Shown: positions 1 through 18,977 of the stretch, piece after piece | How the letters are laid out: each line of letters starts with the position of its first letter | Position numbering within the stretch: the first letter of the stretch is position 1 | NCBI GenBank assembly: GCA_965215015.1 | Contig: OZ244042.1 | Location: 1,984,001 to 2,048,000 of the forward strand | Reading direction: 5' to 3' | From: Candidatus Poribacteria bacterium | Lineage (GTDB): Bacteria > Poribacteria > WGA-4E > PCPOR2b | Length of the DNA: 64,000 bases | Notes under the pieces: generated by a model | Told to the model about the DNA's origin: nothing | Seen by the model: only the letters and a program-made list of their open reading frames with translations | The model's database searches: none | Position numbers and translations under genes: made by a program

Positions 1-61
1 AGATGCCGGGGACCGCATTGCAGCAACGGCGATTCGACTACTTCACGATGCACATGGATAA
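1..61 (+). CDS. 3' end of a gene entering from the left edge (partial)
   Basis: Frame from nt 2 reads DAGDRIAATAIRLLHDAHG-stop (TAA 59-61), followed by an intergenic repeat. Confidence 0.55.
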   Translation, partial: DAGDRIAATAIRLLHDAHG

Positions 62-62
62 A

Positions 63-265
63 TGGGGGGCTCATAATTATGGTCTGAATCAGAATTTTCA
101 GAATTTAAGGATTCACAGGATTATATGACTCACGTTCACATCTAAACGGCGAGATAGGTCTGAGGAAGGGGCCTCCTTATTGTCTGAATTACGGATTAAA
201 CGGAAAACACGGATTGGGGACCCTCCGGTGGCACGATTTCACGAATTGGATTTATGAGCCCCCTC
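63..265. mobile_element. MITE family A copy
   Basis: Terminal inverted repeats GGGGGCTCATAA ... TTATGAGCCCCCTC; same ends at 5799-6023, 25145-25394, 60071-60221. Confidence 0.7.
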
Positions 266-317
266 ACGTATTTACCGGATCTTTCACATAATGTATGCTA
301 ATTAGGCCCCATTCACC

Positions 318-683
318 TTAGGACTGCTGATTTAATAACTTACTTCCTAACTGTTTAGCCACCTGAATCAGGACGCGAAGATCGTCAGGCGTACATATGG
401 GCAGCTCTGCGAATAGGGCTTCATAGAGATGTACACGCTCTTTATCCTCGGTTTCGGCAGAAACTTCAACAAAGTCAAATAACGCCTTGGGTGCTACATT
501 TAATCCGTATGCAATGCGTTCCACCATTTTGAGGGATGGCACCTGTTGGCCGCGTTCGACATTTCCCATAAAGTTAAGGCTCACCTCCGCGATTTCCGCC
601 AGCTGCGTTTGTGTCAAGCCGGCGGCTTTTCGCAACCGCCGCATTTTGATGCCCAGTTTGGTTGCCAGACTTTGTGTTTGCAT
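318..683 (-). CDS. XRE/Cro-C1 family HTH transcriptional regulator
   Basis: LRKAAGLTQTQLAEIAEVSLNFMGNVERGQQVPSL is a canonical HTH_3 motif; divergent from 951-1472. Confidence 0.9.
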   Translation of the reverse strand: MQTQSLATKLGIKMRRLRKAAGLTQTQLAEIAEVSLNFMGNVERGQQVPSLKMVERIAYGLNVAPKALFDFVEVSAETEDKERVHLYEALFAELPICTPDDLRVLIQVAKQLGSKLLNQQS

Positions 684-799
684 CCTTGCGTTTCTCCTTA
701 AGATAGAGTGGGCATACTATAACATATAGAATGGAAACCTTATAGGCATTATTAATCTATAAAAAAATATATATAAAGTGTAATAATGTGTTTTTTTTC

Positions 800-873
800 T
801 TGACAAGGCTATTTCGCTTGATGTATCTTCATACTATAATACATCCAAGTTGTAAAATCGTTATAGCTTGGAT
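800..873 (+). promoter_or_regulatory. Putative sigma70 promoter and 5'-UTR hairpin for the secreted-protein operon
   Basis: TTGACA 800-805, TATCTT 824-829 (TATAAT also at 835-840); imperfect inverted repeat ATCCAAGTTGTAA...TTATAGCTTGGAT 843-873. Confidence 0.5.
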
Positions 874-950
874 ACTAACGAACGCAAACTTTTTCTTATG
901 AAAGTTTGCGCCAATCACCTGGCTCTATGAGCCAATGCAATGGAGATACA

Positions 951-1472
951 ATGTATCGGAAAGTTTTGTTTGCAACTTTGGCGGTAGTGTTTATTGTAAC
1001 TTTGTGCCTTTTTGTGTATAACCAGAGCTATGCTGGAATAACGACCTGTTCTGCGAGCGCGTCTGCGGGAACGTGGAGATCAACTGCCTCTGTGTCCCCT
1101 GGGCTTATTAACGACGCTAGAACTTATAGTGTAGGAACATTCCGCAGTGGCCCAGCAACCGTGAAAGCCCATGTCAATGGGGACACCGATAAAAAAACGA
1201 AAAGTATTACTGTGGAAGTGGTCGAAGAAATACGAGAAACGTTTTTTGGGTTTGGTGTGAGTATTAGCCCACCGGGTAGTGTTGTTTCCATCACCATTGT
1301 TTCAGGCGGTTATAAGGTGAGTTATAAGACAAAGTCCGTGAAAACAGAGAGTGCTAGCGAAAGCAATTGGGGTATGCCAACATCTCACAAATGGGGATCT
1401 GCAAAGGGGACCATTGATGGTGCCAGTGACTCCGCTTGGGCTGAATATCATTACAGCGGCTATTACAATTAG
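951..1472 (+). CDS. Small secreted Ser/Gly/Thr-rich protein, unknown function
   Basis: GGAG RBS before ATG 951; signal peptide MYRKVLFATLAVVFIVTLCLFVYNQSYA; beta-rich mature part ending SAWAEYHYSGYYN. Confidence 0.8.
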   Translation: MYRKVLFATLAVVFIVTLCLFVYNQSYAGITTCSASASAGTWRSTASVSPGLINDARTYSVGTFRSGPATVKAHVNGDTDKKTKSITVEVVEEIRETFFGFGVSISPPGSVVSITIVSGGYKVSYKTKSVKTESASESNWGMPTSHKWGSAKGTIDGASDSAWAEYHYSGYYN

Positions 1473-1486
1473 TCGTTTCCCATCAG

Positions 1487-1519
1487 AAACCGGTGGCACC
1501 TGAAGTGCCCCCGGTTTTT
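1487..1519 (+). terminator. Terminator-like hairpin between secreted gene and partner gene
   Basis: AAACCGGTGGCAC-CTGAA-GTGCCCCCGGTTT continuing into a T run; homologous hairpin at 3168-3198. Confidence 0.6.
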
Positions 1520-1540
1520 ATCCAATACAGGAGGCTGAAG

Positions 1541-2998
1541 ATGAAATATAAAAAGGCCTTGCTAGGACTTTTCCTTTTAATTATTTTCGTTTTTATTACC
1601 TTTTTCGGCTTACGAGGCAATAGGCAAGCACTGCATCAAAACGAAGGTGCAGATTGGTCCAACTCAGGTCTTGTTTCAAGCCGGACGCCTACGGGATCCC
1701 CGAAGTTCACCTCCCGCCGCGTAGCTAATGGGAATCAACAATCGGCAGATCCGTGGACAGCTTATGTGGAGGAAAAGACAGAACGGCTTTACCAGGATGG
1801 ATTGAAAAACTCTGAGGTAGAGCCGCCGGCTGATTTTCGTGATACGATTCGAGAGGCGATTGAAGCCGAAGCCGCTGCGTTAAAAAAACAATACACGCTG
1901 CCGCCTTTAAGAATAGGAGTCGAGATACCTGAAAAGTATACCGGACCCCAGACAGTTGAAGCCCTGATGGAGACGTTTGAAGCGTATGACCGTCAGGGAG
2001 CTCAGGGAGATGATCTTGAGTCGGATGAGAAGTACCCCCGCGCGGAGTGGCTTGCGATGTTCCTTGAGAAGGAGGTGGTGATAAGAAATTACACCGATTA
2101 TTCGCATTGTCTAGGGATTCGAGGGAATCTGATCAGCTTTGAGCGAGAGGGACATTGGGTAGAAGGGACTCAAGGGGTGCCACCGACGGACGATTGGGAG
2201 ACATTCAAGGCAGCTTATATTGATAGGCAGGCTTGGGAACACCAGCAAATGAGTATGGCCCGGCAAAATGACCCGAACGTGTTCGGTGGACTGTTTACCG
2301 GTCCTGATAACCGCACCTATCTCCCGGGACGTGCAAATCGCGTCTACGTCGAAAGAAGAGAGCGCGGAGCATTTTTTCATGGTGCACCCCTTACCGAAAA
2401 ACAGCAGTGGGACATTATGTTGCAAGGGAAGCACCCGGAAGGCTATGAAATCATCTATATCGATGAAAATGGGACGATTCTCTCCGAACCCCCGCCGCCC
2501 ATCCCACCTCCAACAGGGGAAGAAAGACGCCAATTGGAAACGTGGCTGAGAAGAGGGAAAAGCCAACCGCCAGAGACCTCCGCCGATGCGTCAAGTCAAA
2601 CTTCCGAGGATTGGGATATACGCGGGCAGGACAGTCCTTTGGAGGCCGAAACGGTGAGGGCAGCAGCCCAAGCCACTCAGAAACGGTTTGAGCAGGCACA
2701 AACTGAGGCTTTGGAACGCGCCACCAAAAGTGATGTCGAAATAGACGCCGAGCTCGAAAAACTATTGACACCCGAACCGACCACGCCGTTTGACCCAGAA
2801 GCGTGGGAGGGGTTGTCCCCCGAGCAACGAAAGAGAGCCAAACTGTTCTTTGACCAGTATGGCGCAGAGGAGGGGCTTCGTCGGCTGCGGGTGTCTCACC
2901 CTGAAGCCGCCGAGCAATTTGAGCGGGAGCGAAACAATCCACCCGGTCGTGATGCGCCGCCGGTCAAAGACGAGAAGGCTACGCCCTCAACACAGTAG
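1541..2998 (+). CDS. Membrane-anchored uncharacterised protein (partner A)
   Basis: AGGAGG RBS, ATG 1541, N-terminal TM (MKYKKALLGLFLLIIFVFITFFGL); paralogue of 3223-4704. Confidence 0.85.
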   Translation: MKYKKALLGLFLLIIFVFITFFGLRGNRQALHQNEGADWSNSGLVSSRTPTGSPKFTSRRVANGNQQSADPWTAYVEEKTERLYQDGLKNSEVEPPADFRDTIREAIEAEAAALKKQYTLPPLRIGVEIPEKYTGPQTVEALMETFEAYDRQGAQGDDLESDEKYPRAEWLAMFLEKEVVIRNYTDYSHCLGIRGNLISFEREGHWVEGTQGVPPTDDWETFKAAYIDRQAWEHQQMSMARQNDPNVFGGLFTGPDNRTYLPGRANRVYVERRERGAFFHGAPLTEKQQWDIMLQGKHPEGYEIIYIDENGTILSEPPPPIPPPTGEERRQLETWLRRGKSQPPETSADASSQTSEDWDIRGQDSPLEAETVRAAAQATQKRFEQAQTEALERATKSDVEIDAELEKLLTPEPTTPFDPEAWEGLSPEQRKRAKLFFDQYGAEEGLRRLRVSHPEAAEQFERERNNPPGRDAPPVKDEKATPSTQ

Positions 2999-3016
2999 GC
3001 AAGCACGAGTTGGTGG

Positions 3017-3057
3017 AAGCGGTATCCATCCATTTTCCGGGGGATACCGCTTTTTTT
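3017..3057 (+). terminator. Rho-independent terminator
   Basis: AAGCGGTATCC...GGATACCGCTT followed by T tract; duplicated at ~4723-4762. Confidence 0.75.
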
Positions 3058-3222
3058 CTAAGTCGCATTATTGCTCCCTCCCATTCCGAGTCATTCAATG
3101 AGGGAGCGTACAAGCATGGAGGCGAAGTGGTAAGGGGTTTAACCTCAGATAATCGTTCCTAAATTGGAAATCGGGGCACCTTTAAGGTGCCCCGATTCTA
3201 ACTCTCATATAGGGGATAAAAG

Positions 3223-4704
3223 ATGAAATATAAAAAAACAGTGCTCGCACTTTCCGTTTTGACAACTATCGGTATCATCGCCTTTTTTGTCTTCCGAGTG
3301 AACCGACCCACCTTCCGCTTGCCCGCGTCAGTGGTTGGAGGCTTTATGGCTGGAGATAGACTCGGCACCGGTCATCAAAAAGAATCTGATGATCCGTGGC
3401 AAGCCTGGGTGGAAAAGCAAACGACCGAAGTCATTAAAAATATGGTAGCAGTGGACAAGAAACAGGCTCGTTCTACATTGGACGCAAGCCAAATCGCTGA
3501 ATGGCGCACCGATATTCATGCCTACATGACCAAGCACGCGGATATGATGAAAGAGAAATATCCTTCTCCTGCTGCGATGGAGGCAAATGGTGATGGGTTA
3601 CCCACTGAGGTTGAGCTTACGGTTAGGAAAGTGCCCCTTGAAAGATATACCGGTCCTCAGACGGTTGAAGCCCTGATGGCAGCATTTGATGAGAACGACG
3701 ACCGTCGCAAGGTGGATGATCGCAAGGTGGATGAGAAGTATCCTCGCGCCGAATGGCTTGCGATGCTCCTTGATAAAGGCGTCGTGTTCAGGGATTACAG
3801 CGATTACTCTCTTTTTATGAACGAGCGATGGAATTTGGTAGGTTTTGAGGAGAATGGGCGTTGGGTATCGGGAGCACTAGGGATGCCACCGACGGACGAT
3901 TGGGAGACATTCAAGGAAGGTTATATTAATAAGAGGATTTGGCAAGAGCAGCAAATCGCTGCCGAGCGGCAAAGTGATCCGAGCGTGTTCGGTGGACTGT
4001 TTACCGGTCCTGACAATCAAACCTACCTCCCGGGACGCGCGAATCGTGTCTACGTCGAAAGAAAAGGGCGCGGGGCATTTTTTCATGGTGCACCCCTTAC
4101 CGAAAAACAGCAGTGGGACATTATGTTGCAAGGGAAGCACCCGGAAGGCTATGAAATCATCTATATCGATGAAAACGGGACGATTCTCTCCGAACCCCCA
4201 CCGCCCATTCCACCCCCGACAGGAGAAGAACGTCGTCAAATGGAGGCATGGTTAAAAAGAGGGAAAAGCCAACCGCCAGAGACCTCCGCCGATGCAGCCA
4301 GCCAAACTTCCGAGGATTGGGATATACGCGGGCAGGACAGTCCTTTGGAGGACGAAACGGTGAGTGCAGCAGCCCAAGCCACTCAGAAACGGTTTGAGCA
4401 GGCGCAAACGGAGGCTTTGGAACGCGCCACCAAAAGCGATGCCGAAATAGACGCAGAGCTCGAGAAACTATTGACACCCGAACCGACCACACCGTTTGAC
4501 CCAGAAGCGTGGGAGGGGTTGTCACCGGACCGACGAAAGAGAGCCAAACAGTTCTTTGACCAGTATGGCACAGAGGAGGGGCTTCGCCGGCTGCGGGCAT
4601 CTGACCCTGAAGCCGCCGAGCAATTTGAGCGGGAGCGAAACAATCCACCCGGTCGTGATGCGCCTCCGGTCAAAGACGAGAAGGCTACGCCCTCAACACA
4701 GTAG
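3223..4704 (+). CDS. Membrane-anchored uncharacterised protein (partner B)
   Basis: 493-aa ORF, MKYKK plus TM; C-terminal ~235 aa nearly identical to partner A, N-terminal ~140 aa divergent. Confidence 0.85.
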   Translation: MKYKKTVLALSVLTTIGIIAFFVFRVNRPTFRLPASVVGGFMAGDRLGTGHQKESDDPWQAWVEKQTTEVIKNMVAVDKKQARSTLDASQIAEWRTDIHAYMTKHADMMKEKYPSPAAMEANGDGLPTEVELTVRKVPLERYTGPQTVEALMAAFDENDDRRKVDDRKVDEKYPRAEWLAMLLDKGVVFRDYSDYSLFMNERWNLVGFEENGRWVSGALGMPPTDDWETFKEGYINKRIWQEQQIAAERQSDPSVFGGLFTGPDNQTYLPGRANRVYVERKGRGAFFHGAPLTEKQQWDIMLQGKHPEGYEIIYIDENGTILSEPPPPIPPPTGEERRQMEAWLKRGKSQPPETSADAASQTSEDWDIRGQDSPLEDETVSAAAQATQKRFEQAQTEALERATKSDAEIDAELEKLLTPEPTTPFDPEAWEGLSPDRRKRAKQFFDQYGTEEGLRRLRASDPEAAEQFERERNNPPGRDAPPVKDEKATPSTQ

Positions 4705-4878
4705 GCAAACACGAGTTGGTGGAAGCGGTATCCGTCCATCTTCCGGGGGATACCGCCTTTTTTCTAAGTCGCATTATCGCTCCCTCCCATTCCGAGTCAT
4801 TCAATGAGGGGGCGTACAAGCATGGAGGCAAAATAGTAAGGGGTTTAGATGCTACCAAGCAATCTAAGAGATTCATGT

Positions 4879-5118
4879 TCATACCTCCACCGCGGTCTTA
4901 TCCATCCACGGGTTGCTACTTTGATCGTCATCGTCGAGGGTGAACGGCGGGGCGTTTCTTTCCATCTCAAAATACTCTTGTGCTTTCGCTTCGTCCTTCT
5001 CGACACCGAATCCCTCAGTATACATGAATCCCAAAATCCCCATGGCATCGGGATTGCCTAACTCCGCTTCTTTGATCAGAGCGGGCAGCCAGTTGCTGAG
5101 TGTGTCCTTCATGTTCAT
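4879..5118 (-). CDS. Small single Sel1-like repeat protein (possibly a remnant)
   Basis: AELGNPDAMGILGFMYTEGFGVEKDEAKAQEYFE matches the Sel1 consensus; GAGGAGG RBS upstream. Confidence 0.7.
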   Translation of the reverse strand: MNMKDTLSNWLPALIKEAELGNPDAMGILGFMYTEGFGVEKDEAKAQEYFEMERNAPPFTLDDDDQSSNPWMDKTAVEV

Positions 5119-5416
5119 CGTGCTTTCCTCCTCAGAATTTCATCAAGTTGTTGTTTGATGTGTTCCTTCTCGCTTTCATGCCTTGCTTGCATCGCTGATG
5201 CAATTTCATCGCGCTACTACCAACCGCCTCTGCGATTTGATTTGAAGCCAACATCAACAATCGCTGGCTCTTTATAATCGCTCATGATGTGCTAAGTGGT
5301 CGATGTGGTTCTGGTTAAGTTGTCGGATTGCTCGCTTCTATGTCCGATAGACGCTGATTCATCTCAGTAAAACGCTGAGGGGCTATTTCGGATCTACCTT
5401 ATCCTCGCTTTTTTGC

Positions 5417-5570
5417 TTACGTATGGCGGTTGATCAACTTGGGTAAATCAAACTCAATACACTCTCTGACAACTTCCGAAAAACTCAACCCGAAACGCGC
5501 CCTGTCATAGGTTTCGGGATCAAACGCAATGCTCAATAGATGTGTATATCAGATGTGTATATCTTTTTAT
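5417..5570 (-). pseudogene. Ribbon-helix-helix (CopG/Arc-like) pseudogene
   Basis: After AGGAGG RBS and removal of a 13-bp tandem duplication (5538-5563) it reads KRYTHLLSIAFDPETYDRARFGLSFSEVVRECIEFDLPKL; start codon is ATA. Confidence 0.5.
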
Positions 5571-5798
5571 TTTTATCCTCCTTTTATATCATTCATGGTT
5601 GATTTATCAACCGGGTCTTATTTTTTATAGAGTTGTAAACCATTTTGCACAGTCTACATTACCTATACTCTTGCGCTTCTTCGATATAGGAATCGTGCAG
5701 GTTGGCAAATCTGCCTTCTTCAGCAATAGAACCGCCTCTCCGATCCACTTGTGTGTACTCATAAAACTGCGTTTGACTCCCTGACAGCATAACGATGT

Positions 5799-6023
5799 GA
5801 GGAGTGCTCATAATTATTGTCTGAATCGTGGATTCAGCAGAGGATACAGATAAGGGTCTCAGACGGGAGATGAGGCAAGATACTCCACCGACGGGGTTGG
5901 GGATATTTTGTTGTTCCCCATTATGGCTGGGAGTTTAATCGCAGTTGCGTGTTAGCCAAGCACCACAACGGTTGTGGGGTTTACGGCCCGCGGAGAGCAC
6001 CTACTAGTTGATAAGCCCCCCTC
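5799..6023. mobile_element. MITE family A copy
   Basis: GAGGAGTGCTCATAA ... TTGATAAGCCCCCCTC; interior homologous to 25145-25394. Confidence 0.75.
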
Positions 6024-6149
6024 ATTTAAATGGGGGAGAGAAGCTCTTCAAGAAAAATCCTTATGCCGCAGGATACTTTTGCCTTTGTCCAAAATCTCAG
6101 GCGTTTACAATCTGGAACGCCCAAGGCTGAGCCCCGAATCTGCGTTGTG

Positions 6150-7187
6150 CTAATTGCCTTGGCTGGCGAGACTCTCCTCATAGGGAGGGTGAGCAATACC
6201 CTTTTCTGTGATAATTGCTGTGATGAGGGGGGCGGGAGTGACATCAAAAGCGGGACTGTAGACTTTGACCCCTTCGGGAGCCGTTCTGTTGCCGAAGCCT
6301 TCCGTCACTTCTTCGGCGGCGCGCTGCTCAATCGGAATCAAATCGCCCGTTTTAAGGGAGAAGTCAAGCGTTGAAGTCGGTGCGGCAACATAGAAAGGGA
6401 TGTCGTGTGCCTTTGCCAATATCGCAACGTTATAGGTTCCAATCTTGTTGGCGGTGTCGCCGTTTGCGGCAATCCGATCTGCCCCAACAATAACACACTG
6501 GATCTTCCCTTCTTTCATGACCTGTGCTGCCATATTGTCACAAATCAAGGTCACATCAATCCCTGCTTGCATGAGCTCCCACGCTGTCAACCGGGCACCT
6601 TGCAACAACGGGCGCGTCTCATCGGCATAAACGCTGATGTGCTTTCCTGACTCATGTGCAGAGAACATAACCGCTAGTGCCGTACCGTAATCAGAAGTGG
6701 CGAGCCCTCCTGCATTGCAATGTGTCAAAATGGTATCACCATTGCGGATGAGGTCTAATCCATGTTGACCGATAGCGCGACACCTCGCCCGGTCCTCTTC
6801 AATAATACGCTGTGCTTCATTAAGAAGAACACCCTTGAGTTGTGAAATCTCAAGCTCTTTGTGCTTTTCCGCTGTTTGCTCGATCCGCGCCAAAGCCCAA
6901 AAGAGATTCACCGCCGTTGGACGGGAAGTCGCAAGATAATCTGTTACTTTTTTGAGTTCAACCGCGAAATCAGGGTAATTTGTCGCCCTTGATTGCCAAA
7001 TCCCAAGCACCGCTCCCAACGCACCCGCAATCCCGATTGCAGGTGCCCCGCGAACCCGAAGTGATTTAATCGCCTCCCAAACGCTTTCTACATCATCACA
7101 ATAAATCTGCTTAAATTCATTTGGCAGCAAGGTTTGATCGATTAAATGGATTCTACCATCAACCCATTCAATTGTCGGGATCGGCAT
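6150..7187 (-). CDS. mtnA: S-methyl-5-thioribose-1-phosphate isomerase
   Basis: VRGAPAIG, SRPTAVNL, THCNAGGLAT, DETRPLLQGARLT, GADRIAANGDTANKIGTY motifs. Confidence 0.97.
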   Translation of the reverse strand: MPIPTIEWVDGRIHLIDQTLLPNEFKQIYCDDVESVWEAIKSLRVRGAPAIGIAGALGAVLGIWQSRATNYPDFAVELKKVTDYLATSRPTAVNLFWALARIEQTAEKHKELEISQLKGVLLNEAQRIIEEDRARCRAIGQHGLDLIRNGDTILTHCNAGGLATSDYGTALAVMFSAHESGKHISVYADETRPLLQGARLTAWELMQAGIDVTLICDNMAAQVMKEGKIQCVIVGADRIAANGDTANKIGTYNVAILAKAHDIPFYVAAPTSTLDFSLKTGDLIPIEQRAAEEVTEGFGNRTAPEGVKVYSPAFDVTPAPLITAIITEKGIAHPPYEESLASQGN

Positions 7188-7252
7188 CTTCCTCCTCCCC
7201 TTGGTAATCATGGGCAGCCTGTTCAGTGCCCTCCGCTACTACGCTAGTTTCT

Positions 7253-7816
7253 TCACGGGGTGTCATTGAAACCTGCAGCAGGCCCGTTATCTTTGAGATT
7301 GGCGTCTGTTCGAGTTTCGGTGGCACGGGGTTTAGGGGTCGTAATATATGCTTCGTGTGCATCTTTAATCATCTCGATCGTCTCGGCGTAATTTAGCCAA
7401 CCGGATAATTCAAAGTAGGGTTCAAAAAACTGCACGATTCTTTTAAGCAACTTAACGTCCAAATCAGAAATATCCTTAACCGAAGTGTAACGCTCATCAC
7501 CCAACATCACACAGATGACATGATGATCTCGGTCCTTACGTTTTAACAGGCCGATCGGGCGCGCCTCACAGATGTAGCCGGGGTGACTCGCGTTACGAGC
7601 AATCACCATTGCGTTCAGGAAATGTCCATCTTCAGCGACTGTTTCCGGGATCCAACCGTATTCCGTTGGCACTGGCATACTAAATTCATACGCCAACCGA
7701 AATTTGCGGCTCTTCGCATGGTAGCGATATTTTTTCCGACTCCCTTTTGGTGCCTCGATAACAACATTGATGATTGAGGGTGCATGGCGTCCAAGTGAAA
7801 TATCTCGCAAGTTCAT
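7253..7816 (-). CDS. Family I inorganic pyrophosphatase-like protein with degenerate active site
   Basis: VVIEAPKGS..KY, YGWIPET, RPIGLL, VKDISDL, QFFEPY align with PPase, but DGDPxD reads DGHFLN. Confidence 0.85.
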   Translation of the reverse strand: MNLRDISLGRHAPSIINVVIEAPKGSRKKYRYHAKSRKFRLAYEFSMPVPTEYGWIPETVAEDGHFLNAMVIARNASHPGYICEARPIGLLKRKDRDHHVICVMLGDERYTSVKDISDLDVKLLKRIVQFFEPYFELSGWLNYAETIEMIKDAHEAYITTPKPRATETRTDANLKDNGPAAGFNDTP

Positions 7817-8075
7817 TGTTCTTCCCTGCCTTTGAGCGTGTCCCATGAAAGTGGGGAAAGGTTACGGTAGCCGGCAACCTTAACAGACCGAAAATTCAAA
7901 GGAGGCAGTGCAGCACCTCCATAACCCATGAGGAAGGGAATGAATCATTCCATACCTCAACTCTTATCGAACAGGATAAAACCCAATGCAATTCATAAAT
8001 TCAATCCTAAGAATCCAATAAAATTCGCTCAAAAAGATTCAAGCGGTTACGTTTTGACTGACTAATAGTTTGCAC

Positions 8076-8104
8076 ATTATAGCACACCTCACTTAACCTT
8101 GCAA
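8076..8104 (-). promoter_or_regulatory. Sigma70 promoter for the ppa-like/mtnA genes
   Basis: Minus strand TTGCAA-17 nt-TATAAT with extended -10 TG. Confidence 0.7.
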
Positions 8105-8265
8105 TCGAAAAACAGGGCAGGTACAATTTCTCAGCGACCAATAGCCAAAGATCCAAATCCAAAGGTTTGTTTTCAGACCTATATTGGGGTATAATATCCT
8201 ATCAGTTTGACAGTTACCTGTGCCTTTATAACCCTTGATGCTAATTGTGAAAGGATTCAAATCAG

Positions 8266-9405
8266 ATGCCTGTACTCTGCATATCTCTATTGATTTTTAT
8301 CCTTAGCTCACAAATTGCTTTAAATCCCAATGTAACCGGTAAAGCAGTAGATATCCCCGATGTAAATCTGGAAGGTGCACTTCGGGCGCAGTTAGGTATC
8401 CCATCCGATCCGCTTACCGATACCGATTTGGCAGTGCTTACACATCTTTCGGTGATACACATCGAAATTGCCAATTTAACAGGATTGGAGTATTGTCGGG
8501 GTTTAGTGCATCTTAGCCTGATTGGCGTAAAAATCAAAGATATTCGTCCAATCGCAAAATTAAAAAACCTACGGTGGCTTGATCTGGGTAATAATCAGGT
8601 CAGCGATATTCAGCCAATCGCGGCCTTAAATAATCTACAATGGCTCGACCTAAACAACAATCAGATTCACGATATTCAGCCAATTACTGGACTAATACAT
8701 CTAGAACGGCTTGACTTGAATAATAATCAAATTGACGATGTTCAATCCCTCGCTAGATTGATAAATCTGGAGCGACTTTACCTGAATAATAACCGGATCC
8801 ACGATATCCGCTCCCTGGCAGGATTGATAAACTTGGAGAGTCTTGACCTGCCTAGGAATCAGATTCGTGATATTCAGTCACTCGGAGAGTTGAGAAATCT
8901 GAAATGGCTTTATCTGGACGAAAATCAAATTCGCGATATTCGCCCCATTGCAAAATTAGAAAACTTAGAAAGACTCTACCTAGAGACTAATCAAATTCGC
9001 GATGTAGGTCCGCTCGCCGGACTGAAAAATCTGTTTCGACTTAATCTGAACAGAAATCAGATTGACGACATTCGTTCGCTTGCAAAATCAGGAAACCTTG
9101 AGAGGCTTGAACTAATGGACAATCAAATCTCTGATGTGACCCCCCTCACAGAATTAATAAACCTGAAATGGCTTTATCTGGCGAAGAATCAAATCCGCGA
9201 TGTGACTCCTCTCGCAAAATTGGTAAACCTATATGAACTCAATCTGAAGGAGAATCAGATTCGTGATATTCACCCCTTGGTCAACAACCCAGGACTCGGA
9301 AGAGGTGACGTCATTTCCGTGGAATCCAATCCCTTGAATGAAGCCTCTATGGAGAATTATATTCACCGATTGAAAGCACGAGGCGTGCGTTTTTCTGATA
9401 ATTAA
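8266..9405 (+). CDS. Secreted internalin-like leucine-rich repeat protein
   Basis: Signal peptide, IPDVNLEGALR cap, ~11-12 22-aa repeats LxxLxLxxNQIxDIxPL, C-cap NPL. Confidence 0.93.
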   Translation: MPVLCISLLIFILSSQIALNPNVTGKAVDIPDVNLEGALRAQLGIPSDPLTDTDLAVLTHLSVIHIEIANLTGLEYCRGLVHLSLIGVKIKDIRPIAKLKNLRWLDLGNNQVSDIQPIAALNNLQWLDLNNNQIHDIQPITGLIHLERLDLNNNQIDDVQSLARLINLERLYLNNNRIHDIRSLAGLINLESLDLPRNQIRDIQSLGELRNLKWLYLDENQIRDIRPIAKLENLERLYLETNQIRDVGPLAGLKNLFRLNLNRNQIDDIRSLAKSGNLERLELMDNQISDVTPLTELINLKWLYLAKNQIRDVTPLAKLVNLYELNLKENQIRDIHPLVNNPGLGRGDVISVESNPLNEASMENYIHRLKARGVRFSDN

Positions 9406-9449
9406 TTTAACATTTATAAAACTGTGGAGAACAGCTTGGAGGTTACAAC

Positions 9450-10595
9450 ATGGCTTACGATTTGCTAATCAAAGGTGGGACACTAATTGATCCCGCACAA
9501 AATATTCACGCAAACAAAGATGTGGCATTTTCAAACGGCCTTGTCGCAGAAGTCGGTGATGATTTGCCAAAGACAGACGCACATGAGGTATTGGATGCTA
9601 ATCGCTGCCTAGTTACGCCCGGCATGATTGATTTGCATGTTCATGTGTTCTACGGCGTCAGTCATTATGGTATCGAGCCCGACCCGACCTGTTTGGCAAA
9701 AGGGGCAACGACAGTGGTTGACGCCGGTTCGGCGGGGGCCGACATTTTTCCCGGCTTTCGCAAATACGTAATCGATGTCAGTGAAACCCGCATCTTCGCG
9801 CAAATCAATATCTCATCGCAGGGGATGCTGACACAAGAAATTGGCGAGTTCGAGATTCCTGAGTACGCCGATGTGGACAAAGCCTGTGCGATGATTGAAA
9901 AGCACCGTGATGTCATTTTGGGAGTGAAGGTGCGGTTGACAAAGCACAGTATTGTCAGTGAACGATCCGGCATGATTCCGCTGCACCACGCGCGTGAAGC
10001 AGCGGACGCAGCAGGGCTACCCATCATGGTGCACCCACAAGCTGCTTGGTGCGATTCCATAGATGATATCTTGGCGGTTATGGGCGAGCGGGACATCGTG
10101 ACACACTGCTTCCACGGAAGCGAATGTGGTATCTTGGACAACAACGGGAAGGTTCGTAAGTCGGTACATGAGGCGATGGCGCGCGGGGTTGTCTTTGATG
10201 TGGGGCACGGGGCAGGGTCTTTCTCCTGGGATATCGTTGAACAGACGATGAGCCAAGGGGTCGCCCCGCAAACCATCTCATCAGACCTGCACACTTACAA
10301 TGTCAACGGGCCCGTCTACGACCTCGCAAATGTTGTGACTAAGTTCCTCCATCTCGGCATGTCGCTTGACGACGCCATAGCGAAAGTTACCTCAATTCCG
10401 GCAGAGGTCATTCTGATGACGGACAAAATCGGCACACTCGCGCCCGGTGCATGGGGAGACGCGATTATCTCTGAACTGCGCGAAGGCGAATTCCAATTGG
10501 TTGATTCGCGTGGCGAGACCCGTATCAGCAGACAGAACTTTGTGCCGGTTACCGTCGTCAAGGGCGGGCGGGTGTATCGGCAAAGGGCGAATTAA
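9450..10595 (+). CDS. Amidohydrolase/deacetylase (dihydroorotase-like) metallohydrolase
   Basis: PGMIDLHVH, VVDAGSAG, GVKVRL, MVH, THCFHG, DVGHGAGSFS, ISSDLH. Confidence 0.9.
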   Translation: MAYDLLIKGGTLIDPAQNIHANKDVAFSNGLVAEVGDDLPKTDAHEVLDANRCLVTPGMIDLHVHVFYGVSHYGIEPDPTCLAKGATTVVDAGSAGADIFPGFRKYVIDVSETRIFAQINISSQGMLTQEIGEFEIPEYADVDKACAMIEKHRDVILGVKVRLTKHSIVSERSGMIPLHHAREAADAAGLPIMVHPQAAWCDSIDDILAVMGERDIVTHCFHGSECGILDNNGKVRKSVHEAMARGVVFDVGHGAGSFSWDIVEQTMSQGVAPQTISSDLHTYNVNGPVYDLANVVTKFLHLGMSLDDAIAKVTSIPAEVILMTDKIGTLAPGAWGDAIISELREGEFQLVDSRGETRISRQNFVPVTVVKGGRVYRQRAN

Positions 10596-10706
10596 CATAA
10601 CCCAAGTTGCTATCTGACAATTGGAATCTCCTCATGGCCACAGAGCCTGCCCTCAATTCATTGGGGTTGGTCCCTGCACCATGACGGGGTTAACGGCGAT
10701 AGGAAT

Positions 10707-11030
10707 GTGCCTTTAAAAGCACTTGCCAAAATCCTATGGAATGGCGGGGCAACATGGAAAACCGTCTACGACACCGCCAGTGCGAAGGCAAAATCACTTG
10801 ACCTCAAAGCAGCCGCCTTGCGAACGATCCAACGCTGGGTGAATACACACGAGCCAGGCCCCACCGAACCCGAGGTTCAACCCCCGCAACCCGAAGCCAT
10901 CGAATATATTGGGGAGGGCAGCGTCGCCTTCATCGAATCTCTCTTGACCCTTGGGACACCGACACATCGCAAATATCGCACGACCCTTGGACCGCCAGCC
11001 TCGAAAAAAGGGCAGGAAATGACGCAATAG
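10707..11030 (+). CDS. Hypothetical protein or fragment within the element
   Basis: 107-aa ORF starting inside the 35-bp repeat; LRTIQRWV resembles an HTH recognition helix. Confidence 0.3.
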   Translation: MPLKALAKILWNGGATWKTVYDTASAKAKSLDLKAAALRTIQRWVNTHEPGPTEPEVQPPQPEAIEYIGEGSVAFIESLLTLGTPTHRKYRTTLGPPASKKGQEMTQ

Positions 11031-11313
11031 GCGGTTCCGTGAGTGGCAGTTTTATGTCTTGTCGAAAAGACTTTCAACAAGATCTTATAACGTTCTGCGT
11101 CTGTTAGGGCGTTTGGCTTTGAAGGTCGAAAGTCTTAAGGGGAATAAAAGAAGGGAGGTCCAGTGGATGTCCGTTTAATCCGGGGTGTGTAAAGGGCAAT
11201 GCGAAAAGCCCTGAGGTTGATGGCTACGGTTGATCGAAAGATTTTGAGAACTATCCTGAAGGGACATTACCCGTCAGATTTTTATGCCTTTTATCGGAAC
11301 CCGTTACCACGCA

Positions 11314-11715
11314 TCAACCACCAGACGACTTAGAGGCATGTACAAAGTAAGCAGTACCGTACCGATTGTGCCCCGAAGCCCACGCACTCGATCGCGCATT
11401 TGACGCGCTTGAGGTGTAATCTCTCGCTCGCCTTACCCGAGTACTCAATCCGTTTCGGTAATGTCCGGCACCGCCGGCATATTTACTTCCTGATACCGCG
11501 GATATTTCCCATACTCCATGCTTTGCCGACCGTGATGCCCAAGCCTTTCCCTTCGCTACTGTCTGTGATCGCTTTTTGTATACATCAGCCTCAGCTGTCA
11601 GCAGGCGATTAGTGTCTATGTCTGCAGCACCCATCGCCAATCTGAAAACAAAGCCCATCGTAGAAAAAGTAACCAAAAAACAAGTAATCAAACTAACCCA
11701 AAAACGTTTACGCAT
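11314..11715 (-). CDS. Small secreted cationic Ser/Ala/Gly-rich protein
   Basis: AAGGAG RBS; N-terminal hydrophobic signal; Arg/Lys-rich mature part with SSAWASG. Confidence 0.8.
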   Translation of the reverse strand: MRKRFWVSLITCFLVTFSTMGFVFRLAMGAADIDTNRLLTAEADVYKKRSQTVAKGKAWASRSAKHGVWEISAVSGSKYAGGAGHYRNGLSTRVRRARDYTSSASNARSSAWASGHNRYGTAYFVHASKSSGG

Positions 11716-11726
11716 TTTATTTCTCC

Positions 11727-12503
11727 TTATTGGTTGAGATTCAAAAAAGTGTAAGGATCAATTGCATCTGAATCATAATCAAGCACGGTGATGCCGGCCG
11801 GAATAATTCCTTCCCCTAAATCATCATAGTCCCTATCCGACACCCCCTCACCCCCCGATATGGATTCCGCATATCGGCTAGTCCTCCCATCTTCTTCCTC
11901 AAAGTATTCCCATCGGACATAAACCGTATTGGAAAATGATGGATAGACGAGCCCATTCTCCATTGACGCAGAGGTGGCACGATGTCCCTGATTCCAGAGT
12001 TTAATTAAAATCCGATCCATCAATTCTGCCGCTTTCATCGCCTCACTCCCAAACTGAGATATATTTTCGTCCATATCCTCTTCCCAAATGACATCTTCAG
12101 GATAATCTGAAGGCACTTCGGGATAGGGACCGAAGCCAAAGGAGGACACCGGCTGCGTCTCCTCTACGACTTCAGTCGTCAACAGGGCTATCTCCTCATC
12201 CGATAGCTCTGCCAAGAAATCATCGGCCGACTCGACCGCCGTAGGCGGAACTGTAGCCTTTGATTCAATCGCACCGGTCTTTTCGGAATCTGAAGCAACG
12301 GGTGCCCCTTCACCGTGATGCGCGGCGTCGTAGGAAGAATGGTCATGTTGCCCCTCAATTGAACGATTAAAGGCCTGAGCATCTGACAAATCCGTCTTAA
12401 GCTTAACATAGCCTTGGTATTCCCTATAGGTGACATAAAAGGTAAAAATAAACGCAACAATACACCCCCCAACAATATAGGGGATAAAACCACGTTTTAA
12501 CAT
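11727..12503 (-). CDS. Membrane-anchored acidic uncharacterised protein (partner C)
   Basis: GGAGGT RBS; N-terminal TM; ENGLVYPSFSNTVYV and GIIPAGITVLDYD resemble motifs in partners A/B. Confidence 0.85.
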   Translation of the reverse strand: MLKRGFIPYIVGGCIVAFIFTFYVTYREYQGYVKLKTDLSDAQAFNRSIEGQHDHSSYDAAHHGEGAPVASDSEKTGAIESKATVPPTAVESADDFLAELSDEEIALLTTEVVEETQPVSSFGFGPYPEVPSDYPEDVIWEEDMDENISQFGSEAMKAAELMDRILIKLWNQGHRATSASMENGLVYPSFSNTVYVRWEYFEEEDGRTSRYAESISGGEGVSDRDYDDLGEGIIPAGITVLDYDSDAIDPYTFLNLNQ

Positions 12504-12549
12504 TAGAGTTACCTCCCTTAAAAACCCTTACCCACCACAATGTGGTGGG

Positions 12550-12960
12550 TAAGGAAATGACCAGAGATAAAGCCTTCGATACCAGCGACAGAGGCCCACT
12601 GTTTGATAGCGTTGCGCGAAGATCTTATAACATTCTGCAACAAAGTCTGTTAGCGATCCGCTAACAGACGGTTTAAAACATGAATGCTATAGATCCTCCC
12701 CCGTTGACCGTCAATAGTGATTCTTGGATATGGTCACCCCTGACAATCCTTCGGAACAGCATACCCTTTTGGATGTTTGCCTTATCACGGTAAAGCCTTA
12801 TGATTTCCTGTGTGCGGTTCCCAATGAACAGCACCACGCCTTCATCTGTCTAGTCTGTCTTACTCGACTGGACGATTAGGGCGTTATCAGTCATAGCCTC
12901 GACGTTGACCGCCACCGCTTCAGAGATTCGCAACAGGCAATCGCTCATGAGCTGTATCAA
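12550..12960 (-). pseudogene. Cre-like tyrosine recombinase/integrase remnant
   Basis: LIQLMSDCLLRISEAVAVNV..SSKTD*TDEG..LFRRIVRGDH..LTVNG[80-bp insert]ARNAIKQWASVAGIEGFISGH(fs)SL: box I Arg, SKTD Lys and start of HxxR. Confidence 0.8.
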
Positions 12961-13331
12961 CCCCCCGCAAGCGGAGGGAGGGTTCTTAGCGGGGGGATTC
13001 CCCTCCGCTGGTGGGGATTTAGGGTTCTCTGAAGCGAAAGCCAAGAGGAGGTGTGAGACTTTTTTAATCTGTTGATGCATTTCCAATCATATGTTAAAAT
13101 ATAGGAACGAAAAAGCCGACGCCGGCCACAGAAATCCCTAGATAATTCAACCCTTAGATTCCTAGAAAAGTGGTTAATTTTCTAGAAGTTAGTTAATTTT
13201 AACAGGAATGCCCGTTTAAGTTAACCCTCAGCTCCATTAGTTTCCTATTTCCCGCACCAATACGCCACTCAGAAAAATTCTAATTTTATGCTTTCGCATG
13301 TTTATCAATAGCACAGGAAACCGATTATCTG

Positions 13332-13784
13332 TTGTCCGCTCAGGATGGATTGTTCTCGGATAAAAAACTTGAGGAGTTCACACAGGAGATTATTAAGTCA
13401 CAACGGCAGGTCACAGGGATTCTCGATGAAATTCAACCACACGAACTCTATCCCAAAAACCGACTGGAACAATCGGAGTTACAACGCATCCTAACGGATT
13501 GGCAATCCACACCCGCTGCGACGTTTGCCTCCGATGTGATCGACGCACTGGAGAAATCCTTAAAACCAAACTATCAACGCATTCGGGAGATTGTCAAAGG
13601 ACTGAGCGAAAGTGAACAACGAATGATTGTTGATGCGTTTATGAAAATACGGTTAACGGGAAAAGTCTCCTTTGAGGAAAGCGATAAAATCATAGATGAT
13701 GAAGACGTCATCCAAGCTCAGGGAGTCTTTCGGTCAAAAAGCGGTCATGAGATTTACATCGCCACAACAGAGGAGAATCAGTAG
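13332..13784 (+). CDS. Hypothetical protein, probably 5'-damaged
   Basis: 150-aa ORF; frame extends upstream as FYAFACLSIAQET (signal-like) with no start codon. Confidence 0.45.
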   Translation: MSAQDGLFSDKKLEEFTQEIIKSQRQVTGILDEIQPHELYPKNRLEQSELQRILTDWQSTPAATFASDVIDALEKSLKPNYQRIREIVKGLSESEQRMIVDAFMKIRLTGKVSFEESDKIIDDEDVIQAQGVFRSKSGHEIYIATTEENQ

Positions 13785-14226
13785 AAGTTGACAGACATGA
13801 GACTGCTCAACGTCTTCCGAAAAGAGATTGATGCCAGTGTGCTTTTAATGTTGTGAATCTTTAAGCGATCGGCAACATGATTCAAGAAGGAATTTCACGA
13901 CAAAAGATTGGTAGATTAATAAGCAGCGCAGGGGCCGACATTTTGGCACGCACTACTAATACTACTAATAAGGGGCCTTTTAGGCAGGCGGGCCAAAATG
14001 TCATCTAAAAAAAGGCGATAGGAATACGCCTTTAAAGGCACTTGCCAATTGGTCCCTGCACCATGACGGAGGATAACCCCATTTTCTGATTGTCCATTCC
14101 CCTAATTTCTATAACAGGTGCAATTTCCCTAGCAACTTAAGTTAAGAAAGAGCACGCCTGTCGTGACAACTTTAACCGCTTTTTCTAGCCTCCGGAGATT
14201 TATCCGAATAACGAAAGAAAATAATA

Positions 14227-15636
14227 ATGAATCTAATACGCTCCAAACCGGGCGACCTAATCCTGACACCTTTTCTTCTTGAAACAAAAGAAGGCAAGCC
14301 GATTACGGCGGAATGGGGACGCCTCATCGCCCCAGAAAATCGATCGCAACCCAAAGGCAACCTTATCGAGCTCCCATTCGTTCGCTTCAAAGCCACTACC
14401 ACAGAAAAAAGAACACCAATCTTCTCTTTGGCTGGAGGTCCCGGAGATGAGACCCTCGGCAACTTGACATACATGTTGCCGTATGTGCCAACATTTCAAG
14501 CCCTTGGTGATCTGATTATTCCAGAGCCGCGTGGAGTCGGTTTTTCTCGACCCTGTCTCGCTTGCCCTGGAGCTTACCATCTCCCGCTCGATAAACCGTT
14601 AGACTATGATATGCTGGTCAAGACAGAACGAGAATATATGGTCAACTGTGCCAAGTTTTGGAAGGAACAAGGCATAGATTTGTCCGGCTATAATGTTCGG
14701 GAGATGGCAGCCGACGTGGATGCCATACGACAGGCCTTGGGATACCACAAAATCAACTTATTTGGCGGGAGTTTTGGATCCCATCATGGATTGGCGGTGC
14801 TTAGGTACCATGGAGAACATATCGAACGAGCAGTTCTATCCAGTGTCGAAGGGCCAAACCACACGATCAAACTGCCAAGTAATATTCAACACCATCTCGA
14901 AAAATTGGCTTCCATGGTAAAGGCGGACCCGCAGTTGAGCCGGGATATTCCCGATCTTCTAAAACTGATCGGGACGGTGCTTGAACGGTTGGAACAAGCA
15001 CCCGTGACGGTCCAAGTCGAAGATCCTGAAACTGGCAGGACAGTTGCAGTAACGGTTGGGGCACTCGACTTGCAAGCGGCAACTGCCGGCGGGATGCGTA
15101 GTGTTCCATTTTTTCAAGCACTCCCCGCCTGTTACCATGCGATGGCTCAAGGGGACTTCTCTTGGTTGGCTGAACGTGCTTTAGAACATCGGAGAAATTG
15201 TCGAGCCAGGTTAATGCCGGCACTAGTTGATTGTGCATCTGGGGCGATGACGGAACGACGCACCAAAATTGAGAAAGAGGCAGATCAAACCTTATTGGGA
15301 GGCATTATCAACGGCGCACTATTCGATTACTGCGATAAGTTGGGAGGAATAGACCTGAATGACGAATTTCGGGAAGATCTTTATTCCGAAGTTCCAACGC
15401 TACTGGTCAGTGGTACCCTGGATGTAAGAACTCCGGTGAGCAACGCTGAAGAGGTGCTGAAGGGTCTGGTAAATGGACAACATTTAATCCTCGAAAATAT
15501 ATCCCATAGCCATGGGGACCTTGGTGACGAACAAATGCAGCAATTTCTCCATGCTGTTACCCAATTCCTGAAGGGCGAGCCGCTATCTACGACACGAATT
15601 GTCAACCCATTTCAGTTTAATCCAATAGCACCATAG
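14227..15636 (+). CDS. Alpha/beta hydrolase (TAP-like, peptidase S33-related)
   Basis: LAGGPG, PRGVGFS, GGSFG nucleophile elbow, GTLDVRTP, SH. Confidence 0.88.
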   Translation: MNLIRSKPGDLILTPFLLETKEGKPITAEWGRLIAPENRSQPKGNLIELPFVRFKATTTEKRTPIFSLAGGPGDETLGNLTYMLPYVPTFQALGDLIIPEPRGVGFSRPCLACPGAYHLPLDKPLDYDMLVKTEREYMVNCAKFWKEQGIDLSGYNVREMAADVDAIRQALGYHKINLFGGSFGSHHGLAVLRYHGEHIERAVLSSVEGPNHTIKLPSNIQHHLEKLASMVKADPQLSRDIPDLLKLIGTVLERLEQAPVTVQVEDPETGRTVAVTVGALDLQAATAGGMRSVPFFQALPACYHAMAQGDFSWLAERALEHRRNCRARLMPALVDCASGAMTERRTKIEKEADQTLLGGIINGALFDYCDKLGGIDLNDEFREDLYSEVPTLLVSGTLDVRTPVSNAEEVLKGLVNGQHLILENISHSHGDLGDEQMQQFLHAVTQFLKGEPLSTTRIVNPFQFNPIAP

Positions 15637-15768
15637 CGCAAGGAGCTCATTGGATTTTGGATGTGGACTGTTCGTATTGCTCCCAATGGCGTCCCACTTT
15701 TTTCAAAACAGCATTCACAAAACTGTCTAAGCACCTCTGATATTGGACATAACGAAAGCAGAAATAAT

Positions 15769-17217: not shown

Positions 17218-17316
17218 ATCGCCAAACGCTCCGGCTTCCATAATCGATCGCAAGGCAAAATCTTGAGAAGGTTCGTTGTGAGGAAATAAATTTTACATTA
17301 CAATGGAGGCAAAACG

Positions 17317-18396: not shown

Positions 18397-18839
18397 AGCA
18401 TATTGACATTTGACAGTAGTACCCGTCGGTCGGGCAAGATGCCCGACCCCTCCACCCAGTTGAATAGCGGCAGGTAACTTGTAGGTCAAGATTCATATCT
18501 CGACACAAAAATGTCAATAGAACTAGAAAAACAAGCAGGACAATCGCATGTAAATATTATGTAGGACTGACTTTGATTGCAAAAATCATGTCCCATTCCC
18601 TACTGCGCATGAGTAGAACTTTGGGACATGACAAGGGCAATCTACTCATGGCACAGGGTTTCCTAACCTATGATCGGATCGGGATTAGGCAACCGCGATC
18701 TCATTGAGGACAGCCTCTACCCCACGGCAGGGGTTAAACCAACGTTTTGATTGCTCAGCTGCCTAATTCCTATAACAGATGCAATTCCCCTAAACAAACA
18801 AAGAAAGTCTCAAGAGCCTTGGTCAGCTGGATAATATGC

Positions 18840-18868
18840 TTGAGTTTGCCATTATGCAATGCTATAAT
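18840..18868 (+). promoter_or_regulatory. Putative sigma70 promoter of the R-M operon
   Basis: TTGAGT-17 nt-TATAAT with extended -10 TG. Confidence 0.5.
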
Positions 18869-18977
18869 GGTAATGCGTCCTAGCAATGTTAAACTAACGA
18901 AATGATTCGTAAGGTCTTGCTAATTCCTATGTTTATAGTGCAAGGTAACCGTATCTACAAGGTAAGTTAAGTAAAAG

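Follow-up and report, generated by a model that had tools for sequence, protein, structure and literature searches.

Genes for exported small proteins paired with genes for membrane-tethered, predicted cognate binders in Poribacteria: a possible immunity-like system

Poribacteria are abundant, uncultured sponge symbionts whose lineage-specific genes are almost wholly unexplained. In a window of 64,000 nucleotides from a Candidatus Poribacteria bacterium (i.e., the whole stretch of DNA analyzed here, positions 1,984,001 to 2,048,000 of contig OZ244042.1), we characterized two loci, separated by 7 kb of ordinary-looking genes, at which a small protein with a Sec signal peptide is encoded beside a membrane-anchored protein. 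At locus 2, these two proteins (here called secD and partC) are a well-supported cognate pair, and modeling predicts that they bind each other directly through a variable surface. The loci appear to represent two related operon types found only in Poribacteria, each combining a fast-evolving, Sec-exported small protein with an acidic inner membrane protein that would be held by one N-terminal helix. The explanation that we tentatively favor, as the most likely of those considered, is that of a secreted protein and its tethered cognate binder in an immunity-like role. The protein families are undescribed, as perhaps is the fold of the partner, and the logic of the system resembles that of known pairs of secreted and immunity proteins.

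Gene pairs at the two loci

All six open reading frames (ORFs) that the original prediction, made from the DNA letters, had described at the two loci exist as described. Five of them encode components of the pairs:

partC: 11727..12503, minus strand; anchored partner of locus 2 (258 aa), in which a transmembrane helix (residues ~8-45) is joined through an acidic, disordered linker (~46-115) to a conserved C-terminal domain of alpha/beta type (~120-258)
secD: 11314..11715, minus strand; basic small protein of locus 2 (133 aa) with a Sec signal peptide; its gene begins 12 bp past the end of partC
secA: 951..1472, plus strand; type A small component at locus 1 (173 aa) with a Sec signal peptide, rich in Ser, Ala, and Gly
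partA: 1541..2998, plus strand; anchored partner of locus 1 (485 aa), in which the N-terminal anchor is followed by a core domain, a linker that is acidic and rich in Pro, and a C-terminal domain (~50 aa)
partB: 3223..4704, plus strand; tandem paralog of partA (493 aa), without a small gene of its own

In the type C module of locus 2, the gene for the anchored partner precedes the small secreted gene, whereas in the type A module of locus 1 the small gene comes first and is followed by the anchored partner, which is duplicated in tandem. The proteins partA and partB are 64% identical, i.e., tandem paralogs, and the duplication is visible in the DNA (1933-3141 versus 3641-4847; 87.7% identity over 1,217 nt), where it includes ~140 nt of 3' flank past the stop codons. 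The ATG start of secA at 951 is backed by the N termini of homologs. Both small proteins are rich in Ser, Ala, and Gly, as had been noticed (summed fractions, 0.36 in secA and 0.43 in secD, versus a genome mean of 0.218 with a standard deviation of 0.034), and the reported charge contrast at locus 2 is confirmed: mature secD has a charge of +11 and an isoelectric point (pI) of 10.5, and the partC ectodomain has a charge of -36 and a pI of 4.1.

Predicted binding and co-diversification of the paired proteins

A complex model of partC residues 112-258 with secD residues 29-133 reached an ipSAE of 0.91 (0.90 to 0.92 in three runs), compared with 0.00 for the best of three controls. The runs had at least 96% of contacts in common and a partner pLDDT (predicted local distance difference test) of at least 86. 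According to the calibration of the complex tool, its mark is reached by 58 of 80 solved complexes and by 2 of 110 mismatched pairs; for user-supplied alignments, these figures are only roughly valid. Because fold and sequence searches of the PDB found no solved relative, the model is not one remembered from such a relative. The contrast between cognate and control models agrees with the original prediction of a cognate pair, and the interface and fold described here are those of the models. In the partC family, the columns of the predicted interface are more variable (mean entropy, 2.03 bits; n = 37) than all other columns of the domain, buried ones included (1.13 bits; n = 102). The interface helix carries an invariant E-R-K-Q stripe on another face.

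The two genes have diversified together. Across 16 pairs, the net charge of the partner domain falls as that of the mature small protein rises (r = -0.75, p = 9e-4; 3 of 20,000 permutations reach this r), and the pairwise identities of the two genes are correlated (Mantel r = 0.80; 0 of 5,000 permutations), with the limit that the pairs are kin to one another and the permutation values therefore overstate significance. The small protein is about twice as diverged as its partner (mean identity, 0.23 versus 0.47).

Besides this kinship and the inclusion of buried columns in the entropy contrast, two further points weigh against the explanation that we favor. The scope of the complex modeling was the locus 2 pair, and the ratios of nonsynonymous to synonymous substitution rates (dN/dS) within one array are 0.13 to 0.68 for the mature small protein and 0.21 to 0.37 for the partner, none exceeding 1.

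Pairing and distribution across Poribacteria

In this genome, a hidden Markov model (HMM) of the partC domain recovered 12 ORFs at 8 loci, and an HMM of secD recovered 5 ORFs, all 5 of which lie beside a partC-family gene. The partC family occurs in 114 of 151 Poribacteria genomes (~690 matches; at least 17 in one genome) and is limited to three of nine families (21 of 25, 9 of 10, and 83 of 100 genomes; 0 of 15 in the rest). From these genomes we sampled 30 partC loci, one per genome. By our own signal-peptide heuristic, a small signal-peptide ORF lies beside partC on the same strand at 20 of the 30 loci, a few of these ORFs being clearly other proteins (e.g., a WD40-like ORF in L028); one more pair, in L042, was missed by the heuristic. 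At 15 of the 30 loci the small ORF is directly downstream of partC, with gaps of 3 to 42 bp. In one genome, an extracytoplasmic function (ECF) sigma gene and a gene for a zf-HC2 protein of 90 aa are followed by a run of five partC-secD pairs (gaps, 12 to 15 bp); a second genome has the same arrangement with two pairs.

The core of partA occurs in 121 of the 151 genomes (~520 matches). Small signal-peptide ORFs lie directly upstream at 12 of 30 sampled partA loci, and six of these ORFs are recognized by the secA HMM. Relatives of secA are present in 9 of the 151 genomes, and in all 8 genomes other than the present one the secA-like gene is directly upstream of a partA-like gene (in L004 as a remnant fused to that ORF). 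Within this genome, a small signal-peptide ORF adjoins 11 of the 29 ORFs of the anchored families, versus 165 of 3,194 long ORFs in the background (odds ratio, 11; Fisher p = 1.4e-7, computed over paralogs that are not independent of one another), which bears out the statistical adjacency that the original prediction had expected. The small proteins span 102 to 188 aa and consist only of a signal peptide and one domain, a beta domain in the secD model. Two large anchored-protein families are in this way tied to fast-evolving exported proteins by a predicted specific contact. The single recurrent two-gene module that had been proposed therefore holds with regard to recurrence and specificity of pairing and is better described as two module types with opposite gene order.

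The genes might be neighbors only because they share duplicated or mobile DNA, without forming a functional pair. Half of the tyrosine recombinase loci of this genome (7 of 14, including a remnant at 12551-12960) adjoin an anchored-protein gene, and tandem duplication is evident. This explanation is nevertheless highly improbable: the genes have stayed neighbors in three families of the phylum, with small proteins at ~20% identity, and neither the charge compensation nor the complex model would be expected from it alone. A recombinase lies within 1.5 kb of only 1 of the 30 sampled partC loci; that locus is this genome's own, so the association with mobile DNA is confined to this genome.

Several other genes were observed beside anchored-protein genes. 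Two signal-peptide proteins of 127 and 133 aa (genome 5432979-5433362 and L016:1566-1967) fall outside the secA and secD HMMs and are encoded immediately 5' of genes for anchored proteins (of 411 aa in the first case and partA-like in the second), so the pairing theme is wider than the two families of the window. A family of ~172 aa with a signal or anchor helix and repeated '..ANRVxV..' segments recurs at four places (genome 2383390-2383908, 5433421-5433936, and 5242169-5242525; L020:2609-3127). In three genomes (L020, L024, and L050), a sucC-like gene (succinyl-coenzyme A synthetase beta) adjoins the partC modules. A 13-kb cluster in L049 (G105:C4:1675000-1688000) contains at least nine partC-family ORFs, some overlapping or extended, and few small signal-peptide ORFs, none recognized by the secD HMM; one of these small ORFs (115 aa) begins 10 bp past a partC gene and has a 'GTAYAYVNGYDGD' motif, like that of secD, at its end. 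In L015 (1678-3238), three tandem short partC paralogs (168 to 178 aa) consist of the C-terminal domain without the linker; two of them have a lipoprotein-like signal (..WGC..) in place of the membrane helix, and none of the three is beside a small secreted gene.

Relationship between the two module types

BLASTP of partA against partC gave nothing significant, and the alignment of spaced motifs offered in the original prediction scores 12.7 bits. Profile comparison (130 partC-family and 79 partA-family sequences) detects what BLASTP is blind to. With full-length profiles, hhalign aligned exactly the two spaced motifs (probability, 62%; E = 7.3e-5; 65 columns), and with domain-limited profiles it gave a probability of 77%, an E value of 2e-5, and a score of 38.2 over 67 columns. 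Among 100 column shuffles, the mean score was 14.0 (standard deviation, 2.6) and the maximum 21.1, and a reversed profile scored 16.2. The motifs are thus shared beyond chance, as had been claimed, and on this profile evidence we accept that the partA and partC types share a homologous subdomain of ~67 residues, which in the partC model corresponds to the four-stranded sheet and what comes after it.

The secreted proteins are another matter. Their similarity at the two loci had been read in part from a common C-terminal 'SAWA', which is seen by eye only; BLASTP of secA against secD found nothing, hhalign of the two families gave a probability of 0.2 to 0.4% (E = 0.14 at 0.4%), and the claim is not upheld. 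An iterated HMM placed 17 of 34 collected small proteins in the secD family, the secA group staying out. Judged from these profiles, the modules are two related types with opposite gene order, whose secreted parts have no detectable homology.

The anchored proteins also look modular. Residues 1-64 of the window's partC (12310-12503) are of an anchor type unlike that of most partC relatives (MKTVLDLIRQP...HWYYGD). Because this anchor matches the N termini of proteins with a partA-type C-terminal domain (tblastn: genome 6417-6629, 5395175-5395327, and 5432628-5432906), sequence comparison suggests that anchor, core, and tail modules have been shuffled among anchored proteins. The last ~50 residues of partA and partB (window 2850-2998 and 4556-4704) form a separate C-terminal domain with a consensus of about YGxEEGLRRLR..DPEAA. 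This type of domain has no Pfam match and ends 24 ORFs of this genome, which encode anchored proteins with quite different middles.

Protein families and structure models

In agreement with the original prediction, which had recognized no family name, none of secA, partA, partB, partC, and secD has a match in Pfam, NCBIfam, PADLOC, or PHROGs, and secD and secA match no Pfam family even at E values up to 1. None of the 120 relatives listed among the 145 of partC has a Pfam domain, and no Pfam domain occurs among the 78 relatives of partA, all of which are without a name or labeled as Poribacteria hypothetical proteins; all database relatives of partC and partA that have names are called 'hypothetical protein, Candidatus Poribacteria bacterium'. 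Run against the sequences of the PDB, the two family profiles gave nothing below an E value of 0.3. In the ESM Atlas, the partC domain had no usable match, and scores for secA were 0.80 or lower. No longer fused forms of the partC domain were found in a search that the tool itself rates as weak evidence. The secD family profile recovered 59 cluster representatives among 1.84 billion. A weak match to this profile, P0250 (1,318 aa), was rejected as a relative; it contains CarboxypepD_reg repeats and ends in a type IX sorting tail, and the likeness is a general one of beta sandwiches. A search of full-text literature, judged by titles and the openings of abstracts, found no description of these families.

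An AlphaFold2 (AF2) model of partC from 127 sequences has a C-terminal domain with a pLDDT of 96 to 98, in the order helix, long helix, four strands, helix, and strand. Foldseek of the partC model against the PDB gave a best E value of 0.38; the wide VIA list was filled by the N-terminal helix, with no hit at a Z of 5 or more, and a second look with VIA gave a best Z of 2.8 for the C-terminal domain. The fold searches used the whole model, and the modeled C-terminal domain may represent a new fold.

For secD, AF2 gave a mean pLDDT of 88.4 (71 sequences), and the mature part reached 94 to 98 except for one 10-residue block (83). The predicted mature protein is an all-beta sandwich, a meander of about eight 10-residue strands; the beta-like character that had been ascribed to both secreted proteins is thus established by modeling for secD alone. 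Foldseek hits in the PDB were generic immunoglobulin (Ig)-like sandwiches with E values of 4e-3 or weaker and none at 0.001 or better. The best VIA matches, all in the generic range below the tool's level for a meaningful match, were CsgH (Z = 6.7), an entry titled Formosin D (5.9), FnBPA (5.6), and lactococcin 972 (5.6).

A loose resemblance to lactococcin 972-type bacteriocins had been suggested and amounts to a weak fold match only. Lactococcin 972 (PDB 2lgn) likewise has a Sec signal peptide and a small all-beta mature protein, and VIA-align placed 64 of its 66 residues on secD with a root mean square deviation of 2.4; the Z value of this match, in the generic range, ranks it beside unrelated Ig-like domains. 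It differs in having six strands instead of the about eight of secD, and the host here is a diderm. No sequence match accompanies the likeness: secD and secA have no Pfam match, and in a scan of all 71 secD-family members, in which each family was matched by at most two members, Lactococcin_972 was absent among the 25 of 34 matched families listed. The immunity genes that neighbor members of the lactococcin 972 family are of the transporter type (multipass or ABC type), in contrast to the modules described here, in which tight linkage is confined to the gene for a single-pass protein, partC or partA. In structure, secD scores best with CsgH (over 85 residues), and CsgC has a Z of 5.0 (PDB 2n59 and 2y2y). 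These, too, are Sec-exported beta sandwiches of ~100 aa; they differ from secD in that no PDB chain matches it in sequence at an E value below 0.3 and in that no curli genes were noted beside the modules. CsgC and CsgH are not known to have a tethered partner.

An immunity-like role and its alternatives

Colicin M immunity protein Cmi and the Tsi/Tai lipoproteins are periplasm-facing immunity proteins, associated with Gram-negative bacteriocins and with periplasm-acting type VI effectors. As in those systems, a small protein that reaches the periplasm is encoded here beside a specific (in our case predicted) periplasmic binder that is tethered to the membrane by a helix or a lipid anchor; further common features are arrays of pairs, spare binder genes that lack a partner, a variable binding surface (again as predicted here), and complementary charges. 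The Poribacteria small protein differs in having neither a recognizable toxin domain nor a part for delivery of the colicin or type VI kind; it carries a Sec signal peptide only. The partC protein differs in its long disordered linker, its predicted fold without a PDB match, and the binder-first gene order of type C. Polymorphic toxin-immunity systems (contact-dependent inhibition [CDI], Rhs, and type VI/VII effectors) share the tightly linked, covarying cognate binder (gaps of 3 to 15 bp here), whereas the exported Poribacteria protein has no recognizable toxin or delivery domain.

In the proposed mechanism, the long disordered linker of partC at locus 2 would carry the alpha/beta domain into the periplasm, where it would bind the basic beta sandwich of secD one to one through the variable face of a helix and the adjacent sheet, and each partner would match its own neighbor. 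The tethered protein would capture and neutralize the cognate secreted protein at the envelope of the producer; the secreted protein would be antagonistic or surface active, and extra partner genes without a small gene would serve as spare immunities. We favor this role because partners outnumber small genes (12 partC-family versus 5 secD-family ORFs in this genome, with no secD gene lacking a partner), because partners also occur alone or in tandem (three of the 12 are tandem genes for the C-terminal domain only, with no small gene beside them), and because diverged pairs form arrays and have complementary charges. We infer the neutralization, any toxic effect of the small protein, and the way in which it leaves the periplasm; the two secretin genes in the genome make an exit route across the outer membrane possible.

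Several findings count against an immunity-like role. Family library scans of the small proteins found no toxin, enzyme, or pore-forming signature and no catalytic motif, the predicted fold of secD is a generic Ig-like sandwich (best Z, 6.7), no dedicated export or delivery genes are adjacent to the modules, and the partner shows more conservation than specific immunity proteins usually do. The signal-peptide calls, moreover, are those of our heuristic. Of the two functions originally proposed (effector/immunity or subunit/chaperone), the element of a paired, specific binder is supported, and a toxin domain, a catalytic motif, and a dedicated export route were not found.

Alternatively, the anchored protein may hold, fold, or present its secreted neighbor in a stable envelope complex in which the small protein is harmless, for example as a variable periplasmic or surface module for contact with the sponge host or with phages. 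The evidence of binding and coevolution fits this explanation equally well. The gaps of 3 to 15 bp suggest co-production, the best fold matches of secD are Ig-like adhesin, pilin, and CsgC/CsgH-type sandwiches, and a linker of ~70 residues could span the periplasm. Anchor sequences, moreover, are strongly conserved and common to proteins with different ectodomains, suggesting docking to a common membrane component. We nevertheless regard a tether or chaperone as rather unlikely: 7 of the 12 partner ORFs of this genome have no small gene beside them, which would be strange in a dedicated chaperone; the modules adjoin no genes for ushers, sortases, or assembly; and the rapid divergence of a structural pair would be left without explanation.

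Sigma factor genes near the modules

An ECF sigma gene is found directly upstream of the secA-like gene at 5 of 9 loci (L005, L006/L010, L009, and a remnant in L004), and its identity was confirmed by Pfam (Sigma70_r2/r4) for four examples. Sigma genes lie within 1.5 kb at 5 of 30 partC loci and 4 of 30 partA loci, and sigma-54-type activators are found at 7 of 30 partC loci; 10 of the 30 partC loci have one or the other (ECF sigma gene or sigma-54 activator) within 1.5 kb. In L011 (2111-2957) and L048 (1069-1900), an ECF sigma gene is followed by a gene for a zf-HC2 protein of 90 to 94 aa without a membrane helix, ahead of partC-secD pairs. The idea that the zf-HC2 ORF and the next partC-like gene are a split anti-sigma gene was rejected; they are in frame with one stop between them in this genome (G000), and their frames differ in a second genome (G094).

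These genes raise the possibility of ECF-linked envelope signaling, in which the tethered protein and its secreted ligand would act as a sensor like RseA/RseB that controls, or reports to, a nearby sigma factor. As with RseA-RseB and ECF anti-sigma factors, a single-pass inner membrane protein has a periplasmic part that binds (here by prediction) the Sec-exported product of a neighboring gene, and in a minority of loci the operon begins with an ECF sigma gene; in two genomes, the sigma and zf-HC2 genes directly precede the partC-secD pairs. Unlike RseA, the anchored proteins (partA, partB, and partC) have no cytoplasmic anti-sigma domain according to Pfam and only ~7 to 25 cytoplasmic residues, the membrane helix of partC starting at residue 8, and the search for longer forms noted above yielded no fusion of an anti-sigma domain with partC. 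The Poribacteria pairs are also multicopy and hypervariable, and most loci, including both in the window, have no sigma gene beside them. An array of five diverged pairs behind a single sigma gene has the look of a regulon and not of a set of five sensors. We consider such a signaling role unlikely.

Returning to the secreted protein with its tethered cognate binder, a broader generalization is possible, if doubtful: the modules may constitute a Poribacteria-wide class of Sec-dependent polymorphic pairs, in which a hypervariable Ig-like secreted protein is matched with a cognate tethered receptor of a fold unseen in the PDB, arranged in multicopy arrays behind dedicated regulators, and serving effector-immunity functions or self/non-self recognition among sponge symbionts without known delivery machines. 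A true effector/immunity system would represent a route of bacterial competition in a diderm that needs only the Sec pathway, and tethered display or recognition would bear on the dealings of the symbionts with their host and with phages. The locus 2 pair is small and soluble in parts, which makes it suited to a direct binding assay.

Genes and DNA elements around the two loci

The following further features flank the modules in the window:

XRE-type helix-turn-helix (HTH) regulator: 318..683, minus strand; divergent from secA
Hairpin: 12525..12555, minus strand; perfect 14-bp stem followed by a T run, terminator-like, between the recombinase remnant and partC
Probable tyrosine recombinase remnant: 12551..12960, minus strand; upstream of partC on the same strand, found by tblastn with an intact 324-aa paralog

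The predicted XRE regulator is confirmed by Pfam (HTH_31, E = 6.5e-13; HTH_3, E = 3.6e-09; both above the cut-offs). It is not conserved with the module, as tblastn found no match in nine other secA loci (L002 to L010) with their 1.5-kb flanks.

The recombinase remnant aligns with residues 154-272 of the intact paralog in two pieces in different frames (63.5% identity over 96 aa and 63% over 27 aa), and a Pfam scan of its two fragment ORFs gave no matches. Decayed mobile DNA, originally reported at both loci, is accordingly present at locus 2; no recombinase was found at locus 1, where nothing but the XRE gene, the tandem duplication, and a stretch with few genes was seen. No tRNA genes were found in window positions 1-20000. 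The first 14 bases of the hairpin at 12525..12555 are single copy in a genome search, and the hairpins upstream of partC, being unique in the genome, were ruled out as repeated recombination sites. In L016 (2102-3279), a partA-like gene is split, apparently by a frameshift, into two overlapping ORFs (261 and 195 aa) and adjoins an intact-looking, split recombinase.

Other genes recur near the anchored-protein loci. A 79-aa ORF (window 4879-5118, minus strand) has a weak Sel1-repeat match below the Pfam cut-off and a 58% identical paralog at genome 8988-9224, near another locus with an anchored protein and a recombinase. Two further recurrent neighbors at loci of this kind are a coiled-coil protein (MQAETNQRLSD repeats) and a small CopG-like ORF. 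Between the two loci of the window, a 379-aa leucine-rich-repeat protein with a signal-like N terminus is encoded at 8266-9405 on the plus strand; eukaryote-like repeat proteins such as the leucine-rich-repeat type are common in sponge symbionts.

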